Positions 9,815-13,054 of a stretch of 64,000 nt of DNA are shown here, piece after piece; the stretch's first letter is position 1, and each line of letters begins with the position of its first letter. Position numbers and translations under genes: made by a program. Origin of the DNA: Trypanosoma brucei (lineage: Eukaryota); contig CP000067.1 of assembly GCA_000002445.1 (NCBI GenBank), positions 1,024,001-1,088,000 of the forward strand. The letters are read 5' to 3'. The notes beneath the pieces were generated by a model, which did not search any database, was not told the DNA's origin, and saw nothing but the letters and a program-made list of their open reading frames with translations.

Positions 9815-12800
9815 CTACATCTCATGAACCGATTCCTCCACTTGCTGGCCGACATGCCGCCTTCCCGTTGTGTCACACACACGGACTAGCTCAGAAGAGA
9901 TGTAATTCATGCTTCCACAAGTGTTTGAACCGGCACTGCACTGGATTCGTTGATATGTTGTAGGATCATACCTTGTAACGGCGTTCAACACATCCAATTC
10001 TGACACAACTGCTAGAACGTACTTGTGATATTCACCCTCTGTATAATTGGTGTAGTGAAGCGCATCCATAAGACCTGGAGAGCCGAAAGTGATCGTTTGC
10101 GTGTGAGATTCGACCCCGGCCAGTGAGGCGATGCCGCCCGCGATGCCCCATGCGGTGAGTACAATTTCATTGGAAGTTGTATTCTTCATCTCTGTCAGGT
10201 AACGTACGACCTCATCTTTGACATCATACCACGTAAAGTCAATAGCCCTCGTCAAAAATGAAAGAAGGAACGCCACCTGCTTCAACCAGTTGTTTGGAAG
10301 AAGGATTTGAAGTGGTGCAAGGGCAATGTAACCGATCCACACGGTCATTGTAATGATCGATGAGTAAACACGCCCGTTCTGCAGGGTTAACACAGTAACA
10401 TTCCTTGCTAAAGAGTCAAATCGGGATATGGACCATTGTTCATTTCTCTCGCCATATACTTTGACCGTGTTGTTGTACACCACGTCTGTACTTCCGAACC
10501 AGTTGTCAAAATCTTCATGGAACACATTTTCCTTTGACGCTCCGGAAACCTCAGTAAGCAGAGCGAAATCAACGATACCAAACCCCCCTGCGGTGCGCAA
10601 AGTGCAGATGGGATATTGATGGTATTCTTCTAATGGGTCACGGGGTCCGGAGGCATTAACGGGAGGTAGGCTATGTGGCACCCAATACTGCCATTTAGCA
10701 CCCAACCAACCCAGCAAAACGCACGAGAGGGCAAGCATAGCGAGTGCACCATAGAAAATGAAGGTTCCACCGATATTGCGCGACCGGCGGCGAACGCAGA
10801 AAATGCCCATCCCACTGTGTATTAGAAGCACTAAGGAAATGACACCCACCGTCGATCCAACGAGGAAGAAGCTGGCGGTACAGCTGGTTATGAGGAGGAT
10901 GACGAACAGAAAGAGCAAACCGCGCAGCGTTTTCTTTGCGCTTCTTTTCCTCAAACAAAACACAGCTAAGCTTATGAACACCACGTTTACCGCTGCTACC
11001 GTGCATACTGAGACAATCCATGGGCCATCATACTGCAGGAATCTGAAGGAGAAGCAGAGGTACAGCCACAACATACACGCAAAAGCCACCGTACTGCGAA
11101 GCACTGAACGACTCGACATCGAGGAGCGCCCCAGTGAACAGTAGTCTATCGTCAGGATGGCTGCGACGGTAGCGATGCATGTAGCCACTGCAAATGGGAT
11201 CATTCCACTAATGATAAATGCAATACCCAGTAGAAAATCCAGTGTGATTGGCACGGCGCAAGCAATTGTGGTAGAAAGCCTGCGCGTGAGAACGGCCTCC
11301 GTCTTTTCCTCACTCTCTTGCACGTCCAACAGCAGGTACAGGGCTAACATGGAACCCTGATTTTTCTTCCGCCTTTGCTCGCCCATCGGTATCCAATCAA
11401 AAAAAAGCACAATATGGCACAACGCTAGAAATGCCACAGCAAACAGCCACCCAGTAGCAAACGTCACCTGAATACTTCTCAACAAGGAGCTGTGCGTCAT
11501 GGAGTATCCGAAGGAAAACATCTGTAGAAATATCATCGAACAAAATAATATGAGCTGCGCCACACTGCCGCGTGTTTTCCCCAACATGTCCAGTGGTGGG
11601 ACGACTTTGTGTTTCATGATCACCACAAGAACGGTAACTGCACGTGAGCACAACGCAGTGCCTTGGAACGTCACCAAAATCAGTGTTGCGAATAATGCAT
11701 ACACATAGTTCCATTCAATGAAGAACGCTAAGAACACCGTCACGGCTGCACTGGAAGTTAGTGCCATGAAGAAAAGGAGCGCCACTAAGAAGGAGAGGCT
11801 ACTGGCGACATTAACAACGATGAGTACACCGTGATAGAGTTCCCGAAGGGACTCTGGGATGAATCGGTACCACTTTTTGTTCGAAAGGTCAAGCATCGGT
11901 AGTTCATCGAACTCGCGTTTCCACGCTGCCGCATAATCGTCCATCAGAGCACAGCGCATTTCACCCTCCTCCGCCGACACGGCAACGCGCCAGCGATACA
12001 ATTCCTCGAGGAAAAACAATGACAAATTGTTAGGTAGCGGTTTCATGAGCAAACACCATTCATTTTCCTCTTCTTCCAGAGGAGGTGAAATATCATTATC
12101 ATGTCTCCACATGCCATTGAGGTTCCCTTCTACTGGAGTGGCTGTTAAACTTGAGCCAAATGTCAGCAGCGATACCATCGACTCCGTTTCCGAGGCTAAG
12201 GACGGGTGACGTACCGGAACGTTGGGCTGCTCAATGCATTGCAGCTCCCACTCCTTCACCGTCAACCCACGCTCTGAGATAGCAGCCTTCATTCCATGGT
12301 AGTAATCTTCAATAATGTCCCCGTGACGGTCCCAATGCTCCTGGTTATCACAATCATTCGTGCCACCGAGTTGTACAGGGAGAACACTTTCATCAATAAA
12401 CTCCAAAAGCCTACCGGATGCTCGATCGCTTTTGGAGAAAAACATAATACTATCAGAGAAAGCTGATGGGAGCTGCGAGAACAAAGGCTTCGCCACAGAA
12501 CAAAGCATTCGGCCCATGTTGCAGATATATACTTTGCTAATACATCCAGGGAAAAATTTTGATATGCGCAACGCCACATCTGCCTGTAACGACATATCCA
12601 CGTTGCTCCACATGCTTGCATCCTCGTAGTTTACGAGCAGCACCATTTGGCACCGTTTGTTATCCGCTCGCAGTCGTGTCCCGTAACTCACCATCAGATC
12701 AAACGTATGTTTCTTCCCATCACGATGACTCGCCGCTTTCTTGTCCCGGTTCACTGTAACGTAAAAGATGGTGCGACCACACTTGTCTTCTCCAATCACC

Positions 12801-13054
12801 TGTATAATGCCCAACCTCAGTGATGTTCGCATGTACTCCGTGAATTCATACTTGGCCATCTCATTTACCTCCATCGCAAAGCGCCGTTGCAACTTCGCAA
12901 CAGTTTCCTTGACATCGAACTTTTTATTCTCCAGAAATCCATATATCCAACAATCCAATTCATCCCTCTTGATGTCTAGTTCTCTCTTCACTTCCTCCAA
13001 CTCCTGTCGGTGAGACACCGCCACGGGACCAAGTTCCTGTAGAAAAGAGGACAT
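9815..13054 (-). CDS. Large polytopic membrane protein with an N-terminal CRAL-TRIO (Sec14-like) domain and a C-terminal lipase class-3-like domain that appears to lack the nucleophilic Ser
   Basis: The 1079-aa ORF has a verified ATG start. The N-terminal 230 aa look like a Sec14/CRAL-TRIO lipid-binding fold (GIIQVIGEDKCGRTIFYV, LLVNYEDASMW, KVYICNMGRMLCSVAKPLF). The central 550 aa contain many hydrophobic helices. The C-terminus carries LTAWGIAGGIASLAG followed by ITFGSPGL, which resembles the lipase_3 GHSLGG and TFGSPRVG blocks with the serine replaced. Confidence 0.6.
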   Translation of the reverse strand: MSSFLQELGPVAVSHRQELEEVKRELDIKRDELDCWIYGFLENKKFDVKETVAKLQRRFAMEVNEMAKYEFTEYMRTSLRLGIIQVIGEDKCGRTIFYVTVNRDKKAASHRDGKKHTFDLMVSYGTRLRADNKRCQMVLLVNYEDASMWSNVDMSLQADVALRISKFFPGCISKVYICNMGRMLCSVAKPLFSQLPSAFSDSIMFFSKSDRASGRLLEFIDESVLPVQLGGTNDCDNQEHWDRHGDIIEDYYHGMKAAISERGLTVKEWELQCIEQPNVPVRHPSLASETESMVSLLTFGSSLTATPVEGNLNGMWRHDNDISPPLEEEENEWCLLMKPLPNNLSLFFLEELYRWRVAVSAEEGEMRCALMDDYAAAWKREFDELPMLDLSNKKWYRFIPESLRELYHGVLIVVNVASSLSFLVALLFFMALTSSAAVTVFLAFFIEWNYVYALFATLILVTFQGTALCSRAVTVLVVIMKHKVVPPLDMLGKTRGSVAQLILFCSMIFLQMFSFGYSMTHSSLLRSIQVTFATGWLFAVAFLALCHIVLFFDWIPMGEQRRKKNQGSMLALYLLLDVQESEEKTEAVLTRRLSTTIACAVPITLDFLLGIAFIISGMIPFAVATCIATVAAILTIDYCSLGRSSMSSRSVLRSTVAFACMLWLYLCFSFRFLQYDGPWIVSVCTVAAVNVVFISLAVFCLRKRSAKKTLRGLLFLFVILLITSCTASFFLVGSTVGVISLVLLIHSGMGIFCVRRRSRNIGGTFIFYGALAMLALSCVLLGWLGAKWQYWVPHSLPPVNASGPRDPLEEYHQYPICTLRTAGGFGIVDFALLTEVSGASKENVFHEDFDNWFGSTDVVYNNTVKVYGERNEQWSISRFDSLARNVTVLTLQNGRVYSSIITMTVWIGYIALAPLQILLPNNWLKQVAFLLSFLTRAIDFTWYDVKDEVVRYLTEMKNTTSNEIVLTAWGIAGGIASLAGVESHTQTITFGSPGLMDALHYTNYTEGEYHKYVLAVVSELDVLNAVTRYDPTTYQRIQCSAGSNTCGSMNYISSELVRVCDTTGRRHVGQQVEESVHEM

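Follow-up and report, generated by a model that had tools for sequence, protein, structure and literature searches.

A kinetoplastid protein family that joins a Sec14 module, an orphan membrane domain and a putative pseudo-lipase

The fungal class-3 lipases and FAEA (Rhizomucor, Rhizopus, Thermomyces, Yarrowia Lip2, Aspergillus) are active Ser-Asp-His enzymes carrying the motif GHSLGG. The lipase-like domains of EDS1, PAD4 and SAG101 serve as heterodimerisation and small-molecule-receptor platforms, and these plant proteins are soluble and nucleo-cytoplasmic, form heterodimers and end in a C-terminal EP domain. Other members of the fold are anchored in membranes: Atg15 consists of one transmembrane (TM) helix and a lumenal, glycosylated lipase, and diacylglycerol lipase alpha/beta of four TM helices and a cytosolic lipase. 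In Sec14/CRAL-TRIO proteins (yeast Sec14/Sfh, plant Sec14-nodulin proteins, patellins, animal Sec14L, alpha-TTP and the Sec14 domains of RhoGEF/GAP proteins), the lipid-binding CRAL_TRIO domain follows a helical N-terminal module, and many of these proteins are multi-domain. We know of no characterised Sec14 protein that is polytopic and, to our knowledge, neither the EDS1 family nor Atg15 nor diacylglycerol lipase unites a lipase fold with a Sec14 and a polytopic domain. Here, we describe a gene of Trypanosoma brucei located at positions 9815..13054, minus strand, of a 64,000-nucleotide stretch of contig CP000067.1 (the window). Its product brings these three parts together, and the C-terminal part (residues 790-1079, the C-domain) is a class-3 lipase fold that has lost its nucleophilic serine.

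The open reading frame (ORF) is complete and uninterrupted, encoding 1079 amino acids (aa) and ending in a stop codon at 9815-9817. The predicted protein is 100% identical to P0001 in our set of family sequences, which are labelled by P-numbers in this analysis, and to the annotated T. equiperdum / T. brucei TREU927 protein (UniProt Q57XZ6, AAZ10983.1), named in databases either "CRAL/TRIO domain containing protein, putative" or "hypothetical protein, conserved". The original prediction, made from the letters of the window, had proposed that Sec14, polytopic membrane and lipase-like parts are fused in one polypeptide, and this is borne out by the uninterrupted ORF and by more than 60 full-length relatives across Kinetoplastea. 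An artefact, be it a fused gene model or a chance ORF, would be at odds with a continuous reading frame, with dozens of species and metagenomes whose proteins share this architecture and length (1040-1385 aa), and with the one full-length tblastn footprint in the window. Such an origin is vanishingly improbable and is already refuted by the continuous ORF and the full-length relatives.

The C-domain (9818..10687; all features of the gene lie on the minus strand) is homologous to class-3 lipases, as judged through family members, profile-profile alignment and fold comparison. In Pfam, the full-length protein has no Lipase_3 match; for the isolated C-domain, Lipase_3 (PF01764) is the only match, at a sub-threshold score. 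Two other family members rise above the threshold, P0035 with 28.3 bits and P0076 with 31.4 bits. When a C-domain profile of 35 sequences was compared with the Protein Data Bank (PDB), PAD4 (E 8.3e-5), Thermomyces lipase (1.4e-3) and a fungal diacylglycerol lipase (5.8e-3) were matched, with SAG101 and EDS1 lower in the same match list and little besides class-3 lipase relatives near its top. Using hhalign, the C-domain profile was aligned with Thermomyces lanuginosus lipase at 90.5% probability (E 1.3e-6); the relevant stretch of the lipase sequence used here agrees with the 1dt3 sequence. These matches uphold the Lipase_3 likeness that had been predicted for the C-terminus. In addition, AlphaFold, run with the family alignment, modelled the C-domain with a predicted local distance difference test (pLDDT) of 90.2 and a predicted template modelling score (pTM) of 0.89. 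Two further searches were uninformative on the class-3 lipase lineage of origin: the C-domain alignment gave no match in the protein database, missing even the family, and the C-domain of P0035 as sole query returned two marginal alpha/beta-hydrolase fragments.

Unlike the fungal enzymes, the protein reads AWGIAG at the active site, with glycine in place of serine. This degenerate nucleophile elbow, T967-A-W-G970-I-A-G973 (10136..10156), is the counterpart of T-G-H-S-L-G-G according to the family alignment, hhalign and the AlphaFold model, and the sequence of residues 969-980 is WGIAGGIASLAG. Gly970 (codon 10145-10147) occupies the position of the catalytic serine in three independent alignments: the family alignment made with MAFFT, the profile against PDB lipases, and the hhalign comparison, which pairs it with Ser146 of Thermomyces lipase. 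Ala968 and Ala972 stand for the flanking glycines of GxSxG, and Trp969 for the histidine. In the AlphaFold model, only residue 181 (Gly970) separates strand 174-180 from helix 182-193, so the strand-turn-helix of a nucleophile elbow is present with Gly970 at its turn. No GxSxG was found anywhere in the 1079-aa protein, and no small-x-S-x-small motif in the lipase-like domain. Among 66 family members, the nucleophile column holds Gly in 48, Ser in 10, Arg in 3, Asp and Asn in 2 each and Ala in 1, and the glycine is invariant in 21 of 21 orthologues from Trypanosoma to Leishmania. A serine one residue upstream (position -1; GSG in T. cruzi, T. theileri and some Leishmaniinae) was considered as a nucleophile and rejected, because W, Y, S, T, G and A all occur in this column.

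The loss of the serine had been foreseen correctly in the original prediction, which named alanine as its replacement; the three alignments place Gly970 there, the earlier register having been off by two residues. The TFGSPG block is retained, as it stated, and the checks that it proposed for this region came out in its favour, with an elbow in the AlphaFold model and no intact GxSxG serine elsewhere in the domain. TFGSPG lies at residues 989-994 (10073..10090), on the strand after the elbow helix, and is the counterpart of the (Y/F)GxP(R) block of class-3 lipases; F990 and P993 hardly vary within the family. The proposed reading as a pseudo-lipase likewise agrees with the missing serine at the elbow, the glycine invariant in 21 orthologues and the lack of GxSxG in the protein. 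Since the C-domain is a class-3 homologue but is without the defining GxSxG serine, it should be filed as a lipase-like pseudoenzyme domain and not as a lipase.

Remnants of other catalytic positions were located by alignment within 9854..9994, comprising D1021 (9992-9994), D1030-P-T1032 (9959-9967) and H1067 (9854-9856). D1021 falls in the column of PAD4 D178, the canonical acid after beta-7, where only 3 of 47 members have Asp. D1030-P-T1032 stands where Ser-bearing relatives have DxHG, and H1067, in a conserved GRRH motif, is kept in 26 of the 47 members; no conserved His was found in the post-beta-8 loop in the family alignment. It could be speculated that the C-domain is still an active hydrolase working through a non-canonical nucleophile or a water-activating mechanism, as D1021 occupies the column of the canonical acid, the orthologues keep D1030 and H1067, and the fold with its tight elbow is preserved. 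However, the elbow and the positions beside it have no conserved Ser, Cys or Thr (residue 969 varies and residue 970 is always Gly in orthologues), T. congolense has Ala and most other members have Gly in place of D1021, and the His of DxHG is an invariant Thr in the orthologues. Continued hydrolysis therefore seems very unlikely.

A perfect GHSxGG is kept in five free-living or metagenomic relatives (P0029, P0035, P0073, P0076 and P0080), and the ancestor therefore probably had a canonical elbow and was a real enzyme, the serine being lost before the trypanosomatids diverged. P0029 (GHSMGG) lies on a metagenomic contig on which a kinesin gene follows (locus L001, 5328-7373), as in the window; because a kinesin gene adjoins in both, P0029 is a syntenic orthologue of the T. 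brucei gene, and the order of gene and kinesin is conserved across distant kinetoplastids. In these Ser-bearing relatives, the spacing of GHSLGG...F(E/D)(A/S)PG presumably resembles that of Atg15. Over their C-terminal 100 residues, the Ser-bearing relatives share neither an Asp at the canonical post-beta-7 column nor a His after beta-8; instead, DxHG precedes the last strand in four of the five. These members may have an unusual ancestral triad, or may be inactive as well. The lipase-like domain has remained under purifying selection after the serine was lost: 40 of 277 columns are invariant among the 21 orthologues, including Gly970 and four cysteines, and identity between T. brucei and T. 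congolense is 64% in this domain versus 59% in the membrane domain.

At the other end of the protein, the CRAL_TRIO domain (PF00650; residues 82-231, 12362..12811) is matched with an E-value of 5.5e-12 and 46.2 bits (gathering cut-off 22.6) over positions 4-153 of the 153-position profile, in agreement with the N-terminal CRAL_TRIO domain proposed earlier. The same domain is matched in all 47 aligned relatives and in eight further search matches, and this Pfam test places the protein in the CRAL_TRIO superfamily. The domain is preceded by DUF7353 (PF24044; residues 6-65, 12860..13039; E 9e-32, 109 bits, cut-off 27), a helical module that always precedes CRAL_TRIO in this kinetoplastid family. 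The position of the domain after a helical N-terminal module and the multi-domain build are thus shared with known Sec14 proteins. Unlike in these, the N-terminal module is the kinetoplastid-specific DUF7353, and CRAL_TRIO is covalently joined to an 11-helix membrane domain and a far-side domain. In sequence, the Sec14 module is also remote from every solved Sec14 structure: the full protein gave no PDB match by phmmer at E <= 10, nor did the full-length family profile at E <= 0.01. Within the family, the Sec14 module is the best-conserved part, with 79-80% identity to T. congolense and 52-57% to Bodo saltans. The N-terminus reads as hydrophilic and without a signal peptide. Between the Sec14 module and the membrane domain, AlphaFold places a linker helix of about 42 residues (342-383, 11906..12031; 13-54 in the numbering of the model; pLDDT ~87-90), which in the family consensus carries a conserved FFLEEL-RWR motif.

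The membrane domain (residues 401-785, 10700..11854) was modelled by AlphaFold with 11 helices (pLDDT 79, pTM 0.73), at residues 401-443, 450-480, 493-521, 524-550, 586-616, 619-642, 646-672, 678-701, 703-731, 734-753 and 761-785, and was delimited by hydropathy and loop charges as well. The original prediction of 12-16 TM helices thus captured the polytopic membrane part and overstated the number by the model, hydropathy giving about 12 hydrophobic stretches. No Pfam match falls in this region, and hhalign detected no internal repeat. A Foldseek comparison with solved PDB structures returned nothing at E <= 1e-3, with query-normalised TM-scores of at most 0.2, and neither the sequence searches nor the solved structures revealed similarity in sequence or fold to described transporter, scramblase or channel families. 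An exhaustive HMMER search with the membrane-domain profile against 1.84 billion representative proteins found 42 proteins only, all of the same architecture or fragments, and its eight new full-length matches all carry DUF7353 and CRAL_TRIO. The membrane domain is thus an orphan, having no detectable relative outside this family. Between helices 4 and 5 lies a large, disordered and charged loop (residues 553-590), assigned to the cytosol in the 11-helix topology. Within it, residues 567-582 (SMLALYLLLDVQESEE; 11309-11356) form a short hydrophobic-then-acidic motif, which is kept across the family (consensus LxLFLxLD), is modelled with low confidence and could be an interfacial or re-entrant element.

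The number of helices bears on where the two soluble domains reside. Under the 11-helix model, the loops alternate in charge throughout, with 26 Lys+Arg in cytosol-assigned loops versus 2 in the others in T. brucei, and family means of 15.5 versus 3.5. The C-domain holds four family-invariant cysteines within 9875..10606, C817 (10604-10606), C1039 (9938-9940), C1046 (9917-9919) and C1060 (9875-9877), which are its only cysteines in T. brucei and in many other members and which we infer to form two disulfides. It is also enriched in N-x-S/T sequons, with 0.92 per 100 aa compared to 0.39 in the N-terminal part (2.4-fold); the asparagines concerned include N800, N861, N885, N958 and N1003 in T. 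brucei, and the sequon at N885 is conserved in the family. Because of the charge bias, the four invariant cysteines and the sequon enrichment, we infer an N-in/C-out topology, in which the Sec14 module would be cytosolic and the pseudo-lipase either lumenal, in a secretory or endolysosomal compartment, or extracellular. The pseudo-lipase domain is probably disulfide-bonded and N-glycosylated.

A 12-helix membrane domain would instead leave the Sec14 and lipase-like domains both cytosolic and able to cooperate, for example with Sec14 feeding lipid to the lipase-like groove. The hydropathy count and the 12 TM helices given by Jackson (2007) favour this arrangement, as does the length of the first hydrophobic stretch, which is 35 residues. 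On the other hand, AlphaFold models residues 401-443 as one unbroken 43-residue helix without a breaker, so that its halves would be only about 17 residues each with no loop between them. The bias of 26 versus 2 fits the N-in/C-out model at every loop, and the cysteines and sequons of the C-domain fit an oxidising, glycosylating compartment. Two cytosolic domains are thus a rather improbable arrangement.

The explanation of the whole that we regard as reasonably probable from the sequence comparisons is a three-module kinetoplastid protein that acts as a non-catalytic lipid sensor, presenter or transfer device. Such a protein would not hydrolyse lipid. Its cytosolic Sec14 pocket would bind or exchange lipid on one side of the membrane, a putative lipid- or acyl-binding groove would be kept by the dead lipase on the other, and the membrane domain would couple the two, making the whole a membrane-resident device. 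The ancestral form probably combined Sec14 lipid handling with real lumenal lipase activity, lost before the trypanosomatids diverged. Several observations weigh against this explanation. The C-domain of the T. brucei protein itself scores only 13.6 bits (E 0.065) for Lipase_3, below the Pfam cut-off of 22. The alignments do not place the ancestral catalytic His and Asp, and the Ser-bearing relatives have no shared canonical acid, which makes it uncertain that any family member is an active lipase. Finally, if the 12 TM segments counted by hydropathy and by Jackson (2007) are correct, both soluble domains lie on one side of the membrane.

A more specific idea, which would make the orphan 11-helix domain a new lipid conduit, either a transporter or a scramblase, between the cytosolic Sec14 pocket and the lumenal dead-lipase pocket, and hence a trans-bilayer lipid relay unique to kinetoplastids, is an unlikely one. 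Alternatively, the lipase-like domain could be a purely structural or protein-interaction module without lipid binding, as in EDS1, PAD4 and SAG101, the lumenal domain recruiting a partner or serving folding or sorting. These three plant proteins are among the best sequence and fold matches; SAG101 is without a catalytic triad, and the EDS1 family signals without lipase activity. Furthermore, the conserved residues of the C-domain are mostly structural (Cys, Trp, Pro and Gly). That more than 60 members, without exception, have the lipase-like domain physically joined to a lipid-binding Sec14 domain argues for a lipid-related role instead, and we hold a module without lipid binding to be fairly unlikely, although the observations fit lipid binding and protein binding by the lipase-like domain alike.

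Returning to the sensor, presenter or transfer device, its functional and architectural precedents differ. For a class-3 lipase fold without catalysis, the plant EDS1 family would be the closest functional precedent; in contrast to these proteins, the T. brucei protein has no EP domain, is membrane-tethered and probably lumenal in its lipase-like part, and shares only 12-16% identity with them. In architecture, Atg15 and diacylglycerol lipase would come closest, both being class-3 lipases anchored in a membrane. They likewise join a class-3 lipase domain to TM helices, but are active enzymes without a Sec14 domain, and their membrane parts are unrelated and far smaller. What is new here is an orphan membrane domain and an unannotated lipase-like pseudoenzyme, joined to a known kind of Sec14 module: two well-studied modules, otherwise soluble or simply anchored, stand at opposite ends of an orphan membrane domain. 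The protein offers a clean case for reuse of the lipase fold without catalysis. If it does sense or move lipid across or along a membrane, major parasites of humans and animals would have in it a lineage-specific component of their lipid homeostasis; if the membrane domain is a lipid conduit, it would be a self-contained trans-bilayer relay and a parasite-specific target.

No kinetoplastid examined lacks the family: it occurs in Trypanosoma and Leishmania as well as in Bodo and the prokinetoplastids, often as several paralogues, and is absent from the hosts. All named sources are kinetoplastid (Trypanosoma, Leishmania, Leptomonas, Lotmaria, Novymonas, Porcisia, Angomonas, Strigomonas and Bodo saltans, with Apiculatamorpha and Papus as prokinetoplastid sources), and the three-module family is restricted to Kinetoplastea. 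Stercorarian trypanosomes have a second, tandem paralogue, e.g., Tco025E_01243 beside Tco025E_01244. A tblastn search of the window for an adjacent paralogue of the kind present in T. conorhini and T. theileri found one copy only. A third group (P0050-P0068), exemplified by LmjF.31.0360 (P0063), is soluble and keeps DUF7353 and CRAL_TRIO; these paralogues have a long non-membrane C-terminal region without a Pfam match. In Leptomonas pyrrhocoris, the soluble ABB37_09539 lies a few genes from the membrane form ABB37_09545 on one contig.

The gene is probably Tb927.4.3920 on chromosome 4, a number taken from Jackson (2007) together with the gene order in the window. Literature searches on the gene or protein and on Sec14/CRAL-TRIO in Trypanosoma returned only that paper on duplication, the sole one found on the locus, and a review of Leishmania lipid-transfer proteins, in which Sec14 homologues are listed and the membrane and lipase parts go unmentioned. 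The lipase-like domain and its dead active site have no database annotation and are not mentioned in the literature searched. All neighbouring genes share the strand of this gene and encode a central-motor kinesin, amino-acid transporters, two calpain-like proteins, DnaJ, TRM13 and an ABC half-transporter. The kinesin gene, with its central motor domain, lies directly downstream (6060-8423, minus strand). Also on the minus strand, 16 bases past the stop codon, lies a strongly hydrophobic ORF of 87 aa (9536-9799), probably a chance ORF in the 3' untranslated region.

The minus strand carries all ORFs of at least 200 aa in the window, pointing to a single polycistronic transcription unit. The GC content drops to 0.33-0.35 in AT-rich dips at 20-22 kb and 26-30 kb. 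The first of these (GC 0.35) separates the two neighbouring calpain-like genes (Peptidase_C2 and DUF1935; 16745-19123 and 21964-24525, minus strand), of which the one encoding 853 aa may be CAP5.5. Three tandem ORFs of 558 aa with a period of about 3.3 kb follow at 35789-37465, 39098-40774 and 42412-44088 (minus strand), the first being assigned to Aa_trans; with two further Aa_trans genes nearby (14210-15571 and 45244-46659, minus strand), this part of the window forms an array of amino-acid transporter genes. The ORF at 51383-53434 (minus strand) encodes an ABCD-type half transporter (ABC_membrane_2 and ABC_tran), and a 952-aa ORF at 54313-57171 (minus strand) has a weak PDEase_I match of 28.8 bits, which suggests a divergent phosphodiesterase-like protein.

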